Shown piece after piece: positions 12,319 to 63,073 of a stretch of DNA of 64,000 nucleotides; the first letter of the stretch is position 1; each line of letters opens with the position of its first letter. Location of the stretch: the NCBI GenBank assembly GCA_013388455.1, contig JACAFF010000040.1, positions 65,990 through 129,989 of the forward strand, in the 5' to 3' direction. A program made the position numbers and the translations under genes. The notes under the pieces were generated by a model. It had not been told where the DNA came from and did not search any database. It was given only the letters and a program-made list of their open reading frames with translations. This stretch comes from Nitrospirota bacterium. Lineage in GTDB: Bacteria; Nitrospirota; Thermodesulfovibrionia; Thermodesulfovibrionales; SM23-35.

Positions 12319-13365
12319 GTGGAATGGGATTTTTTGGTTTTGATTTTTAGGAGACCAATGCAACAGAGGGGATTCACTTTTACCAAGAAACCCTTTCTTT
12401 ACAAAGGATCGATAAATTCCTCCTTGGTAATCTATCCGATAAATGATAATGGACAGAGAACAGGTACAATGCTTTTTATTGACAACAAAACAATAAAATT
12501 TATAAAGAATGCTATTAAAGAAAAAGGCATAATTCAAATGGGTGCTTGTCGTGATAATCCGCCACCTAATTCACTTGGGAAAATGCTTCAGGGGATGGGT
12601 AAATCTCCTCAGTTTCTAAGTTATGTCTTGCCTCTTTTAGAACAAGAAGGTTTTTTAACCTCTTATAAGGAAGGAAAAGCTTTTTGGGTTAAAAAAACTG
12701 CTTCTAGAGAAATAAATTCTATAAATAAGACCCAGATAGATGGAAAAGGTGATATTGAAATTCCTGATAAAGACGAATTCATAAAGGGCTGTAATGCTTT
12801 TAAAAAGCGTGAGAAGCGTGATTCTATGTATAAAGTTGCCACATTCTTAGTTAAACATTTTTGGGGTAGTCCAAGAGATATGTCCGATGCATTAGGAATT
12901 TTATTATTTACATGGAACCACGCATTCTATAGATATGGCTTGTTTGACTATGACAAGCTCGAAAAGTGTATAAAGAATAACATCCCAAAACTTGAAGAGT
13001 TCAGAAATAGAAATATTTTTAATTTAAAGAGAGATGACGAAAGAGACATCAAAAACCTTTTCAATAACTTTCATAAAGCGTTACAAATAAGTGAAGGGAG
13101 ATTAAAAGGCAAATCAAGCCCGGTAGCAGTCTCAAAAGCTCTGCACCTATTAGCTCCTGACTTTTTGCCTCTTTGGGATAATAAAATAGCACAAGCCTAT
13201 GGATGTTACTATTCTGTAAACCCTGCTGAAGAATATGTTAGATTTTGTAGAATAGTAAAAGCTATTGCAGAACAAGTAAAAGATTTCATATCTCCAACTG
13301 ATAAGACTATTCTCAAGTTAATTGATGAATACAATTATTCAAAATACACTCAGGAATGGATTTAA
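12319..13365 (+). CDS. Uncharacterised protein coupled to hsdM (R-M-linked ORF)
   Basis: 348-aa ORF. A more likely start is ATG 12358 (AGGAG at 12349-12353), giving 335 aa. The 3' end overlaps the hsdM start by 10 nt. wHTH-like stretch SPQFLSYVLPLLEQEGFLTSY. C-terminal motif SPVAVSKALHLLAPDFLPLWDNKIAQAYG. No family recognised with certainty. Confidence 0.6.
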   Translation: MEWDFLVLIFRRPMQQRGFTFTKKPFLYKGSINSSLVIYPINDNGQRTGTMLFIDNKTIKFIKNAIKEKGIIQMGACRDNPPPNSLGKMLQGMGKSPQFLSYVLPLLEQEGFLTSYKEGKAFWVKKTASREINSINKTQIDGKGDIEIPDKDEFIKGCNAFKKREKRDSMYKVATFLVKHFWGSPRDMSDALGILLFTWNHAFYRYGLFDYDKLEKCIKNNIPKLEEFRNRNIFNLKRDDERDIKNLFNNFHKALQISEGRLKGKSSPVAVSKALHLLAPDFLPLWDNKIAQAYGCYYSVNPAEEYVRFCRIVKAIAEQVKDFISPTDKTILKLIDEYNYSKYTQEWI

Positions 13366-14897
13366 AGGTGAATAAAACTAACTTAGACGTAAGCACCCTT
13401 GAAAATTGGTTATGGGAGGCTGCTTGTAAAATAAGGGGTGAAATTGATGCTCCTAAGTATAAAGATTACATTCTACCTCTAATTTTCCTCAAACGCCTTT
13501 CGGATGTTTTTGAAGATGAGATAAACAACCTTAAAGATGAATACGGAAATCAACCCATAGCTGAAGAAATAGCTTCTGAAGACCACTCAATTGTCAGATT
13601 CTTTCTACCTGTAGATGCAAGATGGACGAACATATCAAAACAGACAACAAATATCGGTGAATACCTGACAAGTGCTGTCCGTTCTATTGCTAAGGAAAAT
13701 CCAAAACTTCAGGGTGTCGTTGACATAGTAGATTTTAATGCTACAGCAGCAGGGCAGAGAATTATCAGCGATGACAGACTAAAGGCTCTAATAGAAGTTT
13801 TAGGAAGATACAGGCTCGGTTTGAAGGATGTAGAGCCTGACATATTGGGAAGGGCTTATGAATATCTTTTGAGAAAATTTGCTGAAGGCTCTGGACAGAG
13901 TGCTGGAGAATTCTATACGCCCAGAGAAGTTGCAATATTAATGTCTTACATCTTAGACCCTGAACCAGGAGATGAAATTTATGACCCTTGTTGTGGCTCT
14001 GGAGGACTTCTTATCAAAAGTTATTTGCGCTTCAGAGGGAAATTTAAAAATAATTTCTCAGTTACACCTTTGAAATTTTATGGACAGGAAATATTACACA
14101 CCACTTATGCTATGGCAAAGATGAATGCTTTTATTCATGACATGGAAACAGATATCGCGCTCGGAGACACTATGAATAACCCAAAGTTCCTCAATTCTGA
14201 TGGTTCTCTCAAGAAGTTCGATAAGGTTACTGCCAATCCAATGTGGAATCAAGATTTTGCACAATCTACTTATGAAAAAGATGCATACAATCGTTTTATT
14301 TATGGGTATCCCCCTTCTTCAAGTGCAGACTGGGGATGGATTCAGCATATGTTTGCTTCTTTGAACGAGAAAGGGAAAATGGCAGTGGTCTTGGACACAG
14401 GAGCAGTTTCAAGGGGAAGTGGTAATCAGGGTGCAAATAGGGAAAGAGATATACGGAAAGCCTTTGTAGAAAAAGATTGGGTGGAAGCAGTTATCCTGAT
14501 GCCTGAGAACCTGTTCTATAACACCACAGCCCCAGGAATCATTTTAGTCATAAATAAGAAAAAGAAGAAAAAGGGTGAAATTATTCTTATCAATACCTCA
14601 AAGCTCTTTTCCAAAGGCAGACCCAAAAACTATCTGACTGATGAGAACATTCAGAAGGTTTATGAAGTTTATTCAGGGTGGAGGGATGAGGAAGGTATCA
14701 GCAAGGTTATCAAGAATGAAGAAGCAATAAAGAATGACTATAACCTCAGTCCTTCAAGATATGTTTCACAGAATGGTGGAGAGGAAGTTTTACCAGTAGA
14801 AGAAGCAATAGTTTTGTTAAAAGAGGCAGAGGAAGAAAGGGCAATCGCTGATAAGAAGTTAAAAGACATTTTAGAAAAGATGGGATTTGAAATATGA
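13356..14897 (+). CDS. hsdM: Type I restriction-modification system methyltransferase subunit
   Basis: HsdM_N-like N-terminus (LWEAACKIRG..D...YKDYILPLIFLKRLSD). SAM motif IYDPCCGSGGLL. Catalytic ANPMW (NPPF/W variant). Confidence 0.9.
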   Translation: MDLKVNKTNLDVSTLENWLWEAACKIRGEIDAPKYKDYILPLIFLKRLSDVFEDEINNLKDEYGNQPIAEEIASEDHSIVRFFLPVDARWTNISKQTTNIGEYLTSAVRSIAKENPKLQGVVDIVDFNATAAGQRIISDDRLKALIEVLGRYRLGLKDVEPDILGRAYEYLLRKFAEGSGQSAGEFYTPREVAILMSYILDPEPGDEIYDPCCGSGGLLIKSYLRFRGKFKNNFSVTPLKFYGQEILHTTYAMAKMNAFIHDMETDIALGDTMNNPKFLNSDGSLKKFDKVTANPMWNQDFAQSTYEKDAYNRFIYGYPPSSSADWGWIQHMFASLNEKGKMAVVLDTGAVSRGSGNQGANRERDIRKAFVEKDWVEAVILMPENLFYNTTAPGIILVINKKKKKKGEIILINTSKLFSKGRPKNYLTDENIQKVYEVYSGWRDEEGISKVIKNEEAIKNDYNLSPSRYVSQNGGEEVLPVEEAIVLLKEAEEERAIADKKLKDILEKMGFEI

Positions 14898-14967
14898 TTT
14901 CATTAATAGCTCCCCTCGTATTTTAGGAAGGGGTAGTAACCTGATGCATTATTTTATTTCTAAACAA

Positions 14968-15009
14968 CCACCCCTGACCCCTCCTTAATCAAGGAGGGGA
15001 GTTTGGAGA
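14968..15009. repeat. GC-rich nested-palindrome (REP-like) element, copy in the hsdM-hsdS spacer
   Basis: Inner palindrome CCCCTCCTT-AATC-AAGGAGGGG at 14978-14999 (9-bp arms) with degenerate outer arms (CCACCCCT ... AGTTTGGAG). A second weak hairpin CCCCT...AGGGG lies at 14912-14933. Confidence 0.6.
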
Positions 15010-15038
15010 AGGCTGACTCAAAATGAGAATGGGACGAA

Positions 15039-16364
15039 ATGAATAATTCAAACGGCTTCAGAATGACAGAGATAGGATTATTGCCGGAAGACTGGGAAGT
15101 GAAGAAACTGAATCAGTTGTTTGAAATACAGCAGGGTAAAGCATTATCGCCAAAACACAGAAGGGGTATATCACCGTATCCATTCTTAAGAACATCAAAT
15201 GTTTATTGGGGCAGGATAGATTTAACAAATTTAGATTACATGGATTTCTCTACAGAAGAAGTTGATAAAATGGCATTAAGGACTGATGATTTGCTTATTT
15301 GTGAAGGTGGTGATATAGGGAGAACAGCAATGTGGTCAGGTCAAATTAAAAAGTGCTGTTATCAAAATCATCTTCATCGCCTGAGACCTTTAAGAAAAAA
15401 TGAAGCATTCCCCAAGTTTTTTATGTATTGGATGCAAGCCTCTATGTTACTGCTTGGATTATATGTTGGTGCAGGAAATAAGACAACAATTCCAAATCTT
15501 TCAAGAGCGCGATTAGGAGAGTTTCAGCTACCATTACCTTTCTTCTCCGAACAACAAAAAATTGCCTCTGTTCTTTCAGCCGTACAGGAAGCAAAAGAGA
15601 AAACTGAAAATGTCATTAAAGCATTAAAGGAATTCAAGAAATCCATGATGAAGCATCTTTTCACCTATGGACCTGTGCCTTACCCCCCTTCATCCCCCCT
15701 TAATAAGGGGGGAATAGAGGGGGGTGTGCCTTTGAAAGAGACAGAGATCGGGATGATTCCTGAGCATTGGGAAGTGAGTATGCTTGGCAAATATTGCAAG
15801 GTCTTAACTGGTGGAACTCCAAAAACTAAAGTTAAGGAATATTGGCTTCCTGCTGAAATCCCATGGATGAAATCAGGTGAAATTCAGGGTAGTGTTATAA
15901 CTAAAATTGATACATATATATCAAAAAAAGGGTTAGAAAATTCAAATGCAAGGCTTCTACCTAAAAATACCGTTGTGATTGCCCTAGCAGGAAGGGGGAA
16001 AACAAGAGGTACAACGGCTATTCTAAAGACAGAATGTGCATGTAATCAGTCTGTAGCTTGTATGATCTCTAATGAACAACTCCACTATTATTATCTTCAT
16101 TACTATCTTTCTTTTATTTACGTTTATATAAGGAATCTTACTGGTGATAAAGACAGAAGTGGTTTGAACCTACAGATAATACAGAGAATACCTCTTATTC
16201 TTCCTCCTCTCACTGAGCAACATCAGATTGCCGAATCTTTATCAGCCATTGATAAAAAGATAGAAGCTGAAAATACCAAGAAGAATTCGTTAGAAGCTCT
16301 TTTTAAAACTTTGCTTTCTCTTTTAATGACAGGTAAAATTAGGGTCAAAGACCTTGATATATAA
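15039..16364 (+). CDS. hsdS: Type I R-M specificity subunit (two target-recognition domains)
   Basis: Two repeats of the TRD entry motif (IGLLPEDWEVKKL and IGMIPEHWEVSML). Conserved coiled-coil regions (SEQQKIASVLSAV..., TEQHQIAESLSAIDKKIE...LLSLLMTGKIRV). Confidence 0.85.
   Translation: MNNSNGFRMTEIGLLPEDWEVKKLNQLFEIQQGKALSPKHRRGISPYPFLRTSNVYWGRIDLTNLDYMDFSTEEVDKMALRTDDLLICEGGDIGRTAMWSGQIKKCCYQNHLHRLRPLRKNEAFPKFFMYWMQASMLLLGLYVGAGNKTTIPNLSRARLGEFQLPLPFFSEQQKIASVLSAVQEAKEKTENVIKALKEFKKSMMKHLFTYGPVPYPPSSPLNKGGIEGGVPLKETEIGMIPEHWEVSMLGKYCKVLTGGTPKTKVKEYWLPAEIPWMKSGEIQGSVITKIDTYISKKGLENSNARLLPKNTVVIALAGRGKTRGTTAILKTECACNQSVACMISNEQLHYYYLHYYLSFIYVYIRNLTGDKDRSGLNLQIIQRIPLILPPLTEQHQIAESLSAIDKKIEAENTKKNSLEALFKTLLSLLMTGKIRVKDLDI
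15674..15731. repeat. Nested-palindrome (REP/MITE-like) element inserted in frame in hsdS, flanked by direct repeat (T)GTGCCT
   Basis: Element 15681-15725 is TACCCCCCTTCATCCCCCCTTAATAAGGGGGGAATAGAGGGGGGT. Outer arms ACCCCCCT/AGGGGGGT; inner 10-bp arms TCCCCCCTTA/TAAGGGGGGA. GTGCCT occurs at 15675-15680 and again at 15726-15731. Element plus one repeat = 51 nt = 17 codons (YPPSSPLNKGGIEGGVP). Confidence 0.7.
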
Positions 16365-16388: not shown

Positions 16389-16697
16389 ATGCTATTTGTA
16401 GATTACGAAGGAAGGAACATAAGATTATCTGAGGAACGGTGGAAACATATTCAAGAAAGACATCCCGAAACAGTTGGCAAGGAAAAATTTATTGAAGAAA
16501 CAATTTCGATGCCTGATTTCATACAGGAGGGAAATAAAGGGGAATTGATAGCAATCAGAAAGTATAAAAAAACCCCAATTACTGAAAACAAGTATTTTGT
16601 TGTAGTATATAAATTACAAAAGACAGATGGTTTCCTCATTACATCATATTTCACAAGGAGACCGTCTTTCAGGAGGAAATTGATATGGAAAAAATAA
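16389..16697 (+). CDS. Small toxin-like protein (H-x2-RHPE motif; family uncertain)
   Basis: 102 aa: LSEERWKHIQERHPE...ISMPDFIQEG....IAIRKY....KYFVVVYK...GFLITSYFTRRP. Overlaps the next ORF by 13 nt. Lies between hsdS and hsdR. Confidence 0.5.
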   Translation: MLFVDYEGRNIRLSEERWKHIQERHPETVGKEKFIEETISMPDFIQEGNKGELIAIRKYKKTPITENKYFVVVYKLQKTDGFLITSYFTRRPSFRRKLIWKK

Positions 16698-16921
16698 AAC
16701 TTCCACAGGGTAAAACTGTAAACAGCTACTACGACGAGGAGGCAGATGTTCTTTATGTGTCCTTTGGAGAACCTAAGACAAGTGAAACTCTGGACACAGG
16801 AGAGGATTTGTTGATTCGCTTTGATCCTGTTACAGGGGAAATTACAGGGTTTACTATTCTCAATTTTTCAGAGTTCGGGCAGGAAATTGAAGAATTGGTC
16901 AGTGCAACTGCAACACGTTAG
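16685..16921 (+). CDS. DUF2283-family small protein (putative antitoxin partner)
   Basis: YYDEEADVLYVSFGEP...LIRFDPVTGEITGFTILNFSEF matches the DUF2283 pattern (YDxEADxLYI ... GxIxGIEIL). Confidence 0.65.
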   Translation: MEKIKLPQGKTVNSYYDEEADVLYVSFGEPKTSETLDTGEDLLIRFDPVTGEITGFTILNFSEFGQEIEELVSATATR

Positions 16922-16934
16922 AATACTTTAAACA

Positions 16935-19832
16935 ATGCCGTTAGGCAACGAAAGACAATCTGTTCAAAATCCCCTTATAAAATACACTGCCGAAATCAAC
17001 TGGACTTACATAACACCCGATGATGCTCTGAACTGGAGATGTGGAGAGACAGGGCTTGTCTTCAGAGATACCTTTATTACCCAACTACAAAAGCTCAACG
17101 CTTTCATGACCCAGAGCCTTTCTGAGGAACTGCTAAAGAAAATAGAAACACTCCCGTCAAACATTGAAGGCAACCTTTCAGCATGGGAATACCTCAAGGG
17201 GTTAAAGCAGGTCTTTGTCCCCGATGAAAAGAGAGAAAGAAATGTCAGGTTCATAGATACAGAAAATATATATAACAACACCTTTCATGTCACCGATGAA
17301 TTCAGCTTTACTAATGGCAGGAAGACAATACGGGCAGATATTGTGTTCCTAATCAATGGTATCCCAGTCTTTATTGCAGAAACAAAATCAGCTCATAAGA
17401 TTAATGGCATTGCAGAATCCCTTGACCAGATACGGAGGTACCACAATGAAGTCCCTGAGATTATGGCTATACTGCAGATATATGCCCTTACTCATCTAAT
17501 CCGTTATTACTATGGAGCGACTTGGAACACCATAAGAAAGGGTCTTTTCAACTGGAAGGAAGAACAGGAAGGAGACTTTGAAACTCTCGTAAAATCCTTC
17601 TTTGACAAAGAAAGGATAATCAGAATCCTAAATGACTTTATTCTGTTTACAAGGCAGGATGATGAACTTAAAAAGGTAGTTCTAAGACCTCATCAGATGA
17701 GGGCAGTGCAGAAGATTATTTCACGTGTTGAAGATAAAGCCAAAAAGAGAGGCTTAATATGGCATACGCAGGGGTCAGGGAAAACTTATACCATGATTGT
17801 AGCTGCCAAAGAGATAATCGAAAATCCACTGTTTGATAATCCCACCGTCATCATGCTTATAGACAGAAATGAACTTGAATCACAGTTATTTGGAAACCTT
17901 TCATCTGTTGGTTACACACAGAAAGAATTGGAAGAAATAGAGATACAAAGCAAAAGAGATTTACAGAAAGCCCTTCAGGAGGATAAAAGAGGTCTGATTG
18001 TATCAATGATACATAAGTTTGAGGGGATGCCAGAGAATATTAATACGAGAGATAATATTTTTGTCCTTGTTGATGAAGCCCATAGAACTACTGGAGGAAA
18101 ATTAGGTAATTACCTGATGGGAGCTTTGCCCAATGCTACCTATATCGGATTTACAGGAACACCAATTGATAAGACATCATATGGTAAAGGCACATTCATA
18201 ACATTTGGCATAGATGATCCACCAAAGGGCTACCTTGATAAATATGGTATAGCTGAATCAATAGAGGACAACACCACCGTTCCCCTTCACTATACCCTTG
18301 CACCTAACGAGCTTCAGGTGGATAAGGAAGTCCTCAACAGGGAATTCCTCGAGCTTGCCGATGCAGAGGGAATAAGTGACATTGAGGAATTGAATAAAGT
18401 CCTCGAAAGGGCTGTTAATCTGAAAAACATGCTCAAGAAAGAAGAACGCATGGAGAAGATAGCCAAATACGTTTCAGACCATTTCAAAGAATATGTAGAG
18501 CCAATGGGATATAAGGCTTTTCTTGTTGCTGTGGATAGAGAAGCCTGCACTATATATAAACGTATGCTCGATAAACATCTCCCAGTTGAATACTCAAAAG
18601 TTATAATCAGTCCAGGTTTTAATGACCCTGTTGAATTATCAAGGTTTCATCTAACTGAAGAAGAGGAGAAGAGAATAAGGGTCGCATTTAGAAAACCTGA
18701 TGAACTACCCAAAATACTTATCGTAACGGAGAAACTTTTAACAGGCTTTGATGCTCCAATTCTTTACTGCATGTATCTGGATAAACCTATGCGTGACCAT
18801 GTGCTCTTACAGGCAATAGCACGGGTAAATAGACCCTATGAGGATGGGGAAAGCAGAAAGAAACCTTCTGGATTTATCCTTGACTTTGTAGGAATATTCG
18901 ATAATCTCGAAAAAGCCCTTGCATTTGACTCGTCAGACATTAAAGGAATTGTTCATGACATTGAGATTTTAAAGACAAGGTTTGCCGAACTAATGGAACA
19001 GGCAAAGAGTAATTATCTGCGCCTTATCAAAGATAAATCACAAGATAAAGCAGTTGAGGTAGTTCTCAATCATTTTATGGATGAAGAAACAAGGCATGAG
19101 TTTTATACTTTTTTTAAGGAAATAGCAGATATCTATGAGATACTATCTCCTGATGCCTTTTTGAGACCTTACATAAATGATTATGAAACATTAACGAGGT
19201 TCTACAGAATATTGAAAGAGGCATATGATCCAGGTATTTCTATCGACAGGGACTTCTTAAGGAAAACAGTAAAGCTCGTTCAGGAACATACTGAGAGTGG
19301 AGCAATAAAACCAGCCCTTGAGATCTATGAGATTAATGAGGAAACCTTAAAGAAGATTGAAGAAAGCAAGGCATCAGATACAGAGAAAATATTTAATCTT
19401 ATAAAAAGTATCACAAAGACTATCCAAGAGAATGTTGATACTTCACCATATCTTATATCTATTGGTGAAAGGGCGGAAGAAATTGCAAGGCTTTTCAAAG
19501 AGAGACAGCTCACAACGCAGAAAACTCTGGAAGAACTTAAAAAGATTATAGAGGAGATTAATTCAGCAAAAAAAGAACAAATAGATAAGAATATGCCTGT
19601 TGAGGTCTTTGCTACTATGTGGCTGTTCAAAAAAGAGGGTGTCGTCAATGCTGAAGAAAATGCGATACAGATGAAAAAGGCTTTTGAGCAATACCCTCAT
19701 TGGAAAACAAGCGAGGCTCATCAGAGAGAGATTACTAAACAGTTTTATAAAATCTTGGTCAAAGCAGGTATAAAGAATTGCGTTGATATTGTTAAAAAGG
19801 TAATGCGGATATTGACAGGGAGGACAAGATGA
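16935..19832 (+). CDS. hsdR: Type I restriction enzyme R subunit (helicase-nuclease)
   Basis: 965 aa. N-terminal nuclease region (ADIVFLINGIPVFIAETK), Walker A HTQGSGKT, DEAH box VDEAHRT, helicase C motifs (TGFDAP, QAIARVNR). Confidence 0.9.
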   Translation: MPLGNERQSVQNPLIKYTAEINWTYITPDDALNWRCGETGLVFRDTFITQLQKLNAFMTQSLSEELLKKIETLPSNIEGNLSAWEYLKGLKQVFVPDEKRERNVRFIDTENIYNNTFHVTDEFSFTNGRKTIRADIVFLINGIPVFIAETKSAHKINGIAESLDQIRRYHNEVPEIMAILQIYALTHLIRYYYGATWNTIRKGLFNWKEEQEGDFETLVKSFFDKERIIRILNDFILFTRQDDELKKVVLRPHQMRAVQKIISRVEDKAKKRGLIWHTQGSGKTYTMIVAAKEIIENPLFDNPTVIMLIDRNELESQLFGNLSSVGYTQKELEEIEIQSKRDLQKALQEDKRGLIVSMIHKFEGMPENINTRDNIFVLVDEAHRTTGGKLGNYLMGALPNATYIGFTGTPIDKTSYGKGTFITFGIDDPPKGYLDKYGIAESIEDNTTVPLHYTLAPNELQVDKEVLNREFLELADAEGISDIEELNKVLERAVNLKNMLKKEERMEKIAKYVSDHFKEYVEPMGYKAFLVAVDREACTIYKRMLDKHLPVEYSKVIISPGFNDPVELSRFHLTEEEEKRIRVAFRKPDELPKILIVTEKLLTGFDAPILYCMYLDKPMRDHVLLQAIARVNRPYEDGESRKKPSGFILDFVGIFDNLEKALAFDSSDIKGIVHDIEILKTRFAELMEQAKSNYLRLIKDKSQDKAVEVVLNHFMDEETRHEFYTFFKEIADIYEILSPDAFLRPYINDYETLTRFYRILKEAYDPGISIDRDFLRKTVKLVQEHTESGAIKPALEIYEINEETLKKIEESKASDTEKIFNLIKSITKTIQENVDTSPYLISIGERAEEIARLFKERQLTTQKTLEELKKIIEEINSAKKEQIDKNMPVEVFATMWLFKKEGVVNAEENAIQMKKAFEQYPHWKTSEAHQREITKQFYKILVKAGIKNCVDIVKKVMRILTGRTR

Positions 19833-20089
19833 TTACCCCTAATGAATTGAAACAGGAAGTTCTGCAATGGTCTCAACGTATAGGGGTTAAGCCTGTTGAG
19901 ATACATATTCGTAAAATGAAAAACAAATGGGCAAGTTGCTCAATCAGGGGAAGAATTACCTTGAACTCCGATATTCTGAAGCTGACAAAAAAACGCCTCG
20001 ATGAAGTCATAGTCCATGAGCTCCTTCATCTAAAATATCCAAATCACGGGAAGATGTTTAAGGCATTGATAAGGAGTTATCTGAAGTGA
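19829..20089 (+). CDS. Short YgjP/DUF45-like (M48-type) zinc metallopeptidase
   Basis: WASCS..GRITLNSDIL....LDEVIVHELLHLKYPNHGKMF carries the HExxH motif. ATGA overlap with the hsdR stop. At 86 aa it lacks the N-terminal half of full-length YgjP. Confidence 0.65.
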   Translation: MITPNELKQEVLQWSQRIGVKPVEIHIRKMKNKWASCSIRGRITLNSDILKLTKKRLDEVIVHELLHLKYPNHGKMFKALIRSYLK

Positions 20090-20577: not shown

Positions 20578-20652
20578 TGGTAGGCGCGAAGGGGATTGAA
20601 CCCTTGGCCTCTTCCGCGTCAAGGAAGCGCTCTCCCACTGAGCTACGCGCCT
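20578..20652 (-). tRNA. tRNA-Val (anticodon GAC), CCA encoded
   Basis: The reverse complement folds as AGGCGCG-TA-GCTC-AGTGGGA-GAGC-G-CTTCC-TTGACGC-GGAAG-AGGCC-AAGGG-TTCAATC-CCCTT-CGCGCCT-A-CCA. Full cloverleaf with T-loop GTTCAATC. Confidence 0.95.
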
Positions 20653-25576: not shown

Positions 25577-25627
25577 AAAGTTTCTTCTTCATCAATAAAC
25601 CCAAATAATTTATTCATTGAACATACA

Positions 25628-25667
25628 CCCTTCTTTATTTCCACCCTTGCCAAGGGGGAACGAAGGG
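25628..25667. repeat. GC-rich nested-palindrome (REP-like) element between convergent genes
   Basis: CCCTTC-TTTAT-TTCCACCCTTG-C-CAAGGGGGAA-C-GAAGGG. Outer 6-bp arms; inner 10-bp stem with one bulge. Could also act as a bidirectional terminator. Confidence 0.6.
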
Positions 25668-25711
25668 AGTCTGGCAATGAAGCAGAGTATGCCTTTACTC
25701 CAATACGCTTC

Positions 25712-62895: not shown

Positions 62896-62945
62896 ATACC
62901 CCCTTAGTTCCCCATTGCCAAGGAGAGAATTAAAGGGGGGTGTAT
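62896..62945. repeat. GC-rich nested-palindrome (REP-like) element, degenerate copy
   Basis: ATACCCCCTTAG-TTCCCCATTGCCAAGGAGAGAA-TTAAAGGGGGGTGTAT. Outer arms are complementary with an indel. The core TTGCCAAGG is shared with the copy at 25628-25667. Confidence 0.5.
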
Positions 62946-63073
62946 GTTCAATGAATAAAAATTTAGACTTGATTATATATACTATCTGAGAGAAAATTTT
63001 ATAAAGAAAAATATTACAATAAAAATGGCATAACAATTGCTAATAAAATATAATTATAAAGAAAGGAAAGGTT

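Follow-up and report, generated by a model that had tools for sequence, protein, structure and literature searches.

We analysed a 64,000-nt stretch of DNA from a Nitrospirota bacterium (GenBank assembly GCA_013388455.1, contig JACAFF010000040.1, positions 65,990 to 129,989 of the forward strand), hereafter the window, which carries a type I restriction-modification (R-M) locus whose specificity gene, hsdS, contains a 45-nt GC-rich double hairpin. PADLOC detected MTase_I, Specificity_I and REase_I at this locus, that is, a complete type I R-M operon (Table 1). HsdS was identified by two Pfam PF01420 domains, by the PADLOC Specificity_I match (1.5e-111) and by a match to structure 1YF2 (E=6e-64). 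Its open reading frame (ORF) is intact, and the element lies in frame within it without destroying the gene, as the initial annotation of this DNA had noted. The translation across the element reads ...LFTYGPVPYPPSSPLNKGGIEGGVPLKETEIG..., of which the 15 residues Y215 to G229 (YPPSSPLNKGGIEGG) are encoded by the element itself. The locus was found at high share solely in hot-spring metagenome runs, and the NuoL protein encoded in the window is 80–84% identical to proteins named Nitrospirae, Nitrospirota or Thermodesulfovibrionales.

Table 1. Features of the R-M locus and of the hairpin repeats in the window (TRD, target-recognition domain).
Feature	Position	Strand	Remarks
hsdM, type I methyltransferase	13356..14897	+	Upstream of hsdS; Pfam and PADLOC
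Related GC-rich hairpin, ACCACCCCTGA-CCCCTCCTTAATCAAGGAGGGG-AG	14967..15003	+	Perfect 9-bp stem; weak relative, nhmmer E=0.036
hsdS, intact, 441 aa	15039..16364	+	TRD1, central helix 169-210, linker 211-231, TRD2, C-terminal helix 391-430
GTGCCT, Val213-Pro214	15675..15680	+	Conserved and native codons; present in empty alleles L123 and X5
45-nt double-hairpin repeat copy, TACCCCCCTTCATCCCCCCTTAATAAGGGGGGAATAGAGGGGGGT	15681..15725	+	Form A orientation, short-loop subtype
Outer left arm, ACCCCCCT	15682..15689	+	Pairs with 15718-15725; agrees with the family consensus outer arm
Inner 21-nt hairpin, TCCCCCCTTA-A-TAAGGGGGGA	15693..15713	+	Core common to all family members
Outer right arm, AGGGGGGT	15718..15725	+	8-bp outer stem partner of 15682-15689
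GTGCCT, Val230-Pro231	15726..15731	+	Conserved and native codons, before LKETEIG at the start of TRD2
hsdR, type I restriction subunit	16935..19832	+	Downstream of hsdS; Pfam and PADLOC
Degenerate intergenic family copy, same subfamily, same ATGTTCAATGAATAAA tail	25624..25671	-	nhmmer
Degenerate intergenic family copy, TACCCCCTTAGTTCCCCATTGCCAAGGAGAGAATTAAAGGGGGGTGT, then ATGTTCAATGAATAAA	62897..62943	+	nhmmer E=0.013

The inner arms of the element, TCCCCCCTTA (15693-15702) and TAAGGGGGGA (15704-15713), form 10 bp around A15703. This sequence, the 8-bp outer and 10-bp inner arms and the GTGCCT on either side are exactly as first annotated. The G+C content of the 45 nt is 58%, versus about 36–39% in the surroundings and ~36% in the window as a whole. 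A C6 run followed by a G6 run within 30 nt occurs a single time in the 64 kb and was found in none of 100 shuffled sequences; the expected count of the 19-mer core is 0.01. Relative to shuffled sequence, the hairpin had a fold z-score of -3.5 as DNA and -3.2 as RNA. An nhmmer profile built from 42 members of the repeat family described below retrieved the window copy with E=3.7e-16. The right boundary is ambiguous: since the GT at 15726-15727 matches the ...GGGGGGTGT end of the short-loop subfamily (L072), the element may extend by two bases into the second GTGCCT.

The identical hsdS gene was assembled independently in three metagenome runs, and an hsdS allele from another study (X7 record 13), about 3% diverged, carries the element in frame at the same place. 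These independent assemblies and the diverged allele rule out an assembly artefact.

Comparison with other HsdS proteins revealed what this linker normally looks like. In 119 of 119 homologues the region reads LFTYGPV-P-x-x-E-A-E-K/R-V-P-L-K-E-T-E-I-G, with about 6 aa where the window protein has 15, and with VP conserved on either side of the linker. Since none of the 119 has a stretch equivalent to the 15 aa, the segment is foreign to the HsdS family and not ancestral. Alleles with an empty site, which the initial annotation had proposed to look for, do exist. A scan of JGI metagenomes with the left hsdS flank returned three alleles (L123, L124 and L125), the first of which is empty and reads GTGCCT GCTGAAGATGCTGAGAAA GTGCCTTTGAAAGAG, or VP AEDAEK VPLKE, with the second GTGCCT following an 18-nt linker. 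A second empty allele, reconstructed from contig X5, reads GTGCCT ATTAAAGAAGCTGAAAGA GTGCCT; the X5 contig has four SNPs in common with the element-bearing X7 allele.

The GTGCCT repeat had been taken for a target-site duplication, and the literal direct repeat around 45 nt, with 45+6 = 51 nt or 17 codons, does suit a classical insertion of a miniature inverted-repeat transposable element (MITE) that would have duplicated a 6–7-bp target and added 17 codons to a short linker. We nevertheless consider such an event very improbable. Empty alleles with nearly identical flanks already hold both GTGCCT copies around 18 nt, the corresponding VP...VP is conserved in the 119 homologues, and flanking 6-bp direct repeats are absent at 45 other full copies of the family. 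Conceptual excision, which was expected to restore a normal linker, would moreover yield TYGPVPLKETEIG, shorter than the linker of any of the 119 homologues. By this comparison, both GTGCCT copies are native Val-Pro codons and not a target-site duplication. Therefore, the event was an exchange of 18 nt for 45 nt, with a net change of +27 nt and +9 aa, rather than the 51-nt, 17-codon gain initially proposed.

The two remaining alleles, L124 and L125, have other GC-rich hairpin repeats in the same hsdS linker, about 100 nt in all. There (L124 483-584, and L125) a composite palindrome consists of two 33-nt inverted modules around an apparent native HEEGKV linker; each module is made of a CCCCTCT...AGAGGGG hairpin and a GGGGTGTGT/ACACACCCC arm, and adds 11 codons.

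Copies of the element were found in many unrelated contigs and genomes, as the initial annotation had anticipated. The inner hairpin was scanned by exact pattern in one genome per GTDB species, which gave at least 120 loci (L003-L122, all GTDB genome contigs), from more than 10 phyla, with 128 copies of the core. Among the matches listed, to which all family counts below refer, 28 loci belong to Nitrospirota, 43 to ‘Deltaproteobacteria’ plus Thermodesulfobacteriota and 20 to Cyanobacteria; the remainder are from Nitrospinota, Latescibacterota, the candidate phyla radiation (CPR), Planctomycetota, Chloroflexota and others. The consensus is ~50 nt long, TAACCCCCCT-TCA-TCCCCCCTTAA-NN-TAAGGGGGGA-ATAG-AGGGGGGTTA or its reverse complement, and units range from 45 to 51 nt. 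In each unit, a small asymmetric internal loop separates the C6/G6 outer stem from the C6TTA/TAAG6 inner stem, and the centre of the terminal loop is free. Flanks of the copies are mostly unrelated to one another, and the same 50-mers occur, identical, in different species. In each run of the same hot-spring metagenomes, a further 6–8 contigs align to precisely 15682-15725 and to nothing beside it, their flanks being unrelated; nearly all of them contain two additional, variable bases in the centre of the loop. A wetland run contained 42 contigs with a match to this segment, at a summed depth of ~1380. The 45 nt are thus a member of a dispersed double-hairpin repeat family present in many unrelated contexts. 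Local de novo formation of the palindrome is ruled out, since the same 44 nt are present elsewhere. The nesting emphasised in the initial annotation is real, only it does not reflect a double insertion at this site, since it is the standard unit of the family.

The inner core hairpin was also found alone or half-flanked in cyanobacteria. Un-nested single hairpins of the outer type gave no convincing case, in a test biased by the choice of loci through their inner hairpin. A near-identical double hairpin lies in the gene of a CHAT-domain protein on the Nostoc punctiforme plasmid pNPUN01, where it encodes DPPSSPLTKGGKEGGN, a peptide similar to that of the HsdS element; the L105 copy encodes the near-identical ITPLHPPLNKGGIEGV. 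The core was present on 21 IMG/VR contigs (L129-L149), which are predicted to be viral, often as composite multi-hairpin forms. For example, at L144 4767-4852 two different inner hairpins stand next to each other within one outer stem, TAACCCCCCTCAA...GGGGTTA, which gives a Y shape. Such composites suggest that the repeats are assembled modularly, and these contigs are a possible vehicle for spread across phyla. A search of the published literature on the DNA string, the encoded peptides and the topic returned no paper describing the double-hairpin unit.

To see where the 15 residues fall in the protein, HsdS was modelled with AlphaFold2 from a 76-sequence alignment (predicted local distance difference test, pLDDT, 92.8; predicted template-modelling score, pTM, 0.88). 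In the model the central helix (42 residues) and the C-terminal helix (40 residues) are both intact. A coil, 211-231, follows the central helix, and TRD2 starts at residue 232 with a strand (E232-235). The element-coded residues 215-229 have a pLDDT of 58–73, falling below 50 at residues 222-225 (NKGG), and the solved M. jannaschii subunit 1YF2 has a short linker at the same junction. In established type I systems it is how long the conserved helices are that determines the length of the recognition spacer; the repeats of EcoR124I/II are a known example. The initial annotation had supposed that the element could alter TRD spacing and thereby the recognition spacer. According to the model this is unlikely, because the helices that set the spacer are untouched and the insert is placed in a low-confidence coil. 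Most likely, HsdS keeps its specificity and spacer, and the loop would be neutral for the enzyme.

A function of the hairpin within hsdS appears improbable to us, be it as a regulatory RNA or DNA structure (a pause site, an attenuator, an mRNA stabiliser or a site where TRDs are shuffled by recombination) or as a linker extension under selection for a retuned specificity. Such a role would fit the great stability of the RNA hairpin (-37 kcal/mol), the retention of the element in the diverged X7 allele, and the other hairpin repeats in the linker of L124 and L125, which indicate that the site is tolerated or favoured. However, neither a terminator-like site at 15681-15725 nor a promoter signal was found, and Rfam gave nothing at the gathering threshold; at a permissive threshold the canonical copy had only chance matches to miRNA-like hairpins. 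No covariation was seen: changes in the outer stem comprised 3 compensatory versus 31 disruptive ones, a pattern typical of a selfish repeat in decay rather than of an RNA under conservation. The unit also occurs dispersed among unrelated genes and between genes, empty alleles are common, and the model predicts disorder for the insert and places it away from the helices on which TRD spacing depends. A structured non-coding RNA was rejected on the lack of a curated Rfam match and on the 3 versus 31 changes, and an intrinsic terminator, which would be a GC-rich hairpin with a T-run after it, on the lack of a terminator-like site at 15681-15725.

The hsdS copy is not the only one inside a gene. 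With a frame scored as open when it extended at least 150 nt on both sides, 32 of the 110 copies that could be assessed, away from locus ends, were in long open frames. For six host genes Pfam domain matches span the element: these encode a molybdopterin oxidoreductase, a NifEN-like protein, a P-type ATPase, L-aspartate oxidase (NadB), a polysaccharide deacetylase and MurB. Orthologues in different metagenome-assembled genomes (MAGs) have the element at the same site, and every intragenic copy examined was stop-free and kept the frame. Open frames contained 17 of the 28 Nitrospirota copies, close to the 65% obtained for random positions in the same loci, versus 0 of 40 in ‘Deltaproteobacteria’ plus Thermodesulfobacteriota, where random positions gave about 60%. 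The difference between 17/28 and 0/40 was highly significant (Fisher test, p = 5e-9). Out of six phases, Nitrospirota copies usually have two or three free of stops and others usually one, so that part of the lineage contrast resides in the elements themselves. The window copy has a single open phase of the six, which is the hsdS frame. Copies from ‘Deltaproteobacteria’ and Thermodesulfobacteriota often lie within larger repeated blocks, for instance with the left flank TTCGTGTGGGTAGCATCCCCCTCTGA.

These data bear on the proposal that the element never reaches the protein, either because it is removed from the RNA or because the ribosome hops from the first to the second GTG-CCT, as at T4 gene 60 or the mitochondrial ‘byp’ elements. 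Matched GTG CCT codons do flank a stable hairpin of roughly the size of the T4 gene 60 coding gap, which is 50 nt, and the frequency of Nitrospirota copies inside genes does come close to that of random positions. However, the matched codons also flank the native linker of empty alleles, no stop follows the take-off codon, and the 45 nt are in frame and stop-free. All examined intragenic copies keep an open frame, which bypassing would not need, and the subfamilies found in genes have more open phases. The metatranscriptome runs of the same study as the metagenomes, tiny in size, contained none of the gene. Of all the explanations weighed here, we give this one the least credit, and hardly any.

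A second pair of filled and empty sites was found in a gene for a formate-dehydrogenase-like protein (fdhA), in a loop that is hypervariable across ~120 homologues and rich in PPL.KGG.GG-type peptides and heptamer repeats. The 50-nt unit is present in L078 and L127, versus 35 nt of GGAGTCR heptamers in the 87%-identical L126. The ends of the family, TA...TA, are self-complementary, and those of the ACAC...GTGT subfamily are inverted and not direct. The family may have a 2-nt TA target, which at fdhA would be allowed without being proven, because 50 and 35 nt are both 2 mod 3.

Several further repeats accompany these genes. In Nitrospirota the fdhA-type loop following PLIRIAPK (L078 4150-4260, L126, L127, proteins P0241-P0360) holds the heptamers CCAAACT and GGAGTCR together with several hairpin-repeat families. 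Most database entries of fdhA-type proteins end at about the same residue, where the sequence of L078 is ...HCARLCHAP; the most likely cause is a selenocysteine TGA taken for a stop. Another family of in-frame repeats, encoding ...PPLKVRGGRGSY..., is present in MurB-, MurC-like and NifEN-like genes (L014, a Candidatus Uhrbacteria MAG, L045 and L032), and SecA of L014 has a related insert, ...SSPPLVGGVRGGGVT.... Other repeat peptides that recur in Nitrospirota ORFs are WIPAFARMT (L032) and SGLSGIFPKKD (L051).

The closest known kinds of repeat are the small dispersed repeat (SDR) elements of Nostoc and the Rickettsia palindromic elements (RPEs). SDR1-8 of Nostoc punctiforme and its relatives, reportedly described by Elhai et al. 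in 2008, are said to be 21–27-nt hairpins, often self-nested, located beside heptamer tandem repeats and variably present at orthologous sites; we know of no report that resolves how they are mobilised. The present family resembles them in its inner unit of 21–23 nt nested in a like hairpin, in the heptamer tandem repeats beside copies at L078, L096, L116, L126 and L127, in its use of both coding and non-coding sites with filled and empty pairs (hsdS of the window versus L123, fdhA of L078 versus L126), and in the copy on N. punctiforme pNPUN01. It differs in that the 50-nt double hairpin is the propagating unit, and in its distribution: SDRs are described as confined to Nostocaceae (PMC5861425), whereas the present unit is found mainly in MAGs of Nitrospirota and Thermodesulfobacteriota/‘Deltaproteobacteria’, and in more than 10 phyla. 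RPEs are palindromic selfish repeats confined to Rickettsia, about 100–150 bp long and in frame in housekeeping genes (Ogata et al. 2000, summarised in PMC10969869). The likeness lies in the in-frame placement in unrelated genes, with translation as an extra surface segment that does not destroy the protein; the present unit differs by its size of ~50 nt, its cross-phylum range, its unrelated sequence and its intragenic location in some lineages only.

Repetitive extragenic palindromes (REPs) and REPINs are short imperfect palindromes with many dispersed copies, mobilised by RAYT (TnpA-REP) transposases (PMC3116915, PMC6006769, PMC3733652), and REP palindromes have a conserved 5′ GTAG/CGTC tag (PMC3733652, PMC6006769). 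Like them, the present repeat carries no transposase and leaves no duplicated target, and it is probably recognised as a hairpin. In contrast, the tag is absent, the family ending in TAAC...GTTA or ACAC...GTGT; the sequence is near-identical across phyla, where REPs are usually species-specific; and Nitrospirota copies are not extragenic, a feature met in Desulfobacterota-type MAGs (0/40 intragenic). No RAYT gene was found beside copies in the at least 120 loci. REP/REPIN-RAYT membership was rejected for want of the tag and of an extragenic location in Nitrospirota. Membership of a MITE family was likewise rejected, there being no target-site duplication. In the ~1 Mb around 128 copies, no cluster of transposase-like ORFs recurred. 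The GC clusters and double-hairpin elements of fungal mitochondria are GC-rich in AT-rich genomes, spread, and can be in frame; some are bypassed in translation. The present repeat is likewise a GC-rich double hairpin in an AT-rich genome, in frame in coding regions. The fungal elements differ in being organellar and of unrelated sequence, and no evidence for bypassing was found for the hsdS element.

The explanation that we favour as probable is that the 45 nt belong, as a single copy, to a widespread, non-coding and non-autonomous double-hairpin family with units of about 48–51 nt, and are translated through as a tolerated loop. In the ancestor of this hsdS allele, or in an allele with which it later recombined, a copy would have come to occupy the surface linker between the central helix and TRD2, displacing the native 6-aa segment x-x-E/D-A-E-K/R. 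The mRNA would be translated straight through the element, its Pro/Ser/Gly-rich translation forming a flexible surface loop. The copy would survive because it is a short-loop variant without a stop in the hsdS frame, of a length that keeps the frame, and because the loop is tolerated. We infer that the order of events was either insertion followed by trimming, or a one-step replacement or recombination. Given the palindromic ends, and with neither a duplication that could be demonstrated nor a transposase linked to the copies, the evidence points to mobilisation of the hairpin in trans, in the manner of REPs or SDRs. In its core, the original notion of a miniature mobile-type element tolerated in frame within a coding region holds.

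Four observations weigh against this explanation. First, both filled and empty pairs differ by substitution (18 to 45 nt in hsdS, 35 versus 50 nt in fdhA) and neither by simple insertion, so that classical cut-and-paste transposition is not demonstrated. Second, an all-against-all clustering of 1231 ORFs from ~1 Mb around the 128 copies revealed no recurrent transposase, only generic families. Third, nhmmer detected no second intact copy in the 64-kb window, only three weak or degenerate relatives (Table 1). Fourth, the coverage of near-identical metagenome copies was about 5.5, 10 and 15.5, versus 7.9, 8.1 and 7.3, in X1, X2 and X3; these copies belong to another genome, and the hsdS copy may therefore have come with horizontally exchanged hsdS DNA.

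This last point leads to the possibility that nothing moved in the source genome and that the hsdS segment was acquired, already carrying the element, by recombination or horizontal gene transfer from a repeat-rich relative. We regard it as nearly an even prospect. It agrees with the mosaic nature of hsdS alleles, which have only conserved regions in common, and with the different coverage pattern of the genome to which the intact copies of the same samples belong. It agrees as well with the degenerate state of the other family members in the window, with the location of the sole other perfect GC-rich hairpin (stem of at least 8 bp) of the 64 kb in the hsdM-hsdS spacer, and with the tRNA-Val gene adjoining the R-M locus. 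On the other hand, the R-M region differs little from its neighbours in G+C content, being only slightly higher, and acquisition shifts the original colonisation to another genome without explaining it; it is hence compatible with a repeat copy translated through as a tolerated loop.

The two degenerate intergenic copies appear to be a diverged subfamily resident in the source genome. Segments 62897-62959 (+) and 25608-25671 (-) have ~65 nt in common, including the identical tail GTGTATGTTCAATGAATAAA, and share a 16-nt tail. The hsdM-hsdS spacer (14898-15038) is 141 nt long and contains a second, imperfect hairpin, CTCCCCT...AGGGGTAG, at 14911-14936.

Around the three hsd genes several other ORFs were observed. 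Between hsdS and hsdR (16389-16921) are two overlapping ones, one encoding a 102-aa protein with a PBECR2-type (Barnase/EndoU/RelE-like) nuclease domain and the other a 78-aa DUF2283 protein. The pair looks like a toxin-antitoxin-like module inside the R-M operon; PADLOC gave no match for either ORF. A 348-aa ORF (12319-13365), for which neither Pfam nor PADLOC gave a match, shares its last 10 nt with the start of hsdM and may be an accessory gene of the locus. Directly after hsdR, a small ORF (19829-20089) has YgjP-like and weak SprT-like Pfam matches, and beyond it the tRNA-Val gene lies on the opposite strand (20578-20652). The R-M locus may be an island adjoining a tRNA gene.

For this particular hsdS the consequences are probably small: the R-M system seems intact and has probably retained its specificity. 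The locus nevertheless offers a clean, datable case, in which filled, empty and differently filled alleles show hairpin repeats remodelling loops in uncultivated thermophilic Nitrospirota, and it exposes a repeat family with near-identical copies across phylum boundaries. In practice, such repeats break up short-read assemblies and yield spurious ‘PPL.KGG’ peptide similarity among unrelated proteins. The interest of the finding rests mainly on the pattern at the level of the family, and less on the hsdS locus. We tentatively propose, as a possibility somewhat short of even, a 50-nt family that spreads horizontally across phyla, possibly carried by viruses, and whose Nitrospirota subfamilies, having become ‘translatable’ through fewer stops in their frames, colonise surface loops of housekeeping proteins about as freely as random DNA positions. 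If true, its hosts would include HsdS, the formate-dehydrogenase-like oxidoreductase, NifEN-like proteins, P-type ATPase and NadB, and it would amount to an RPE-like phenomenon at the scale of a phylum, a general source of loop variation linked to the SDRs of Nostoc.

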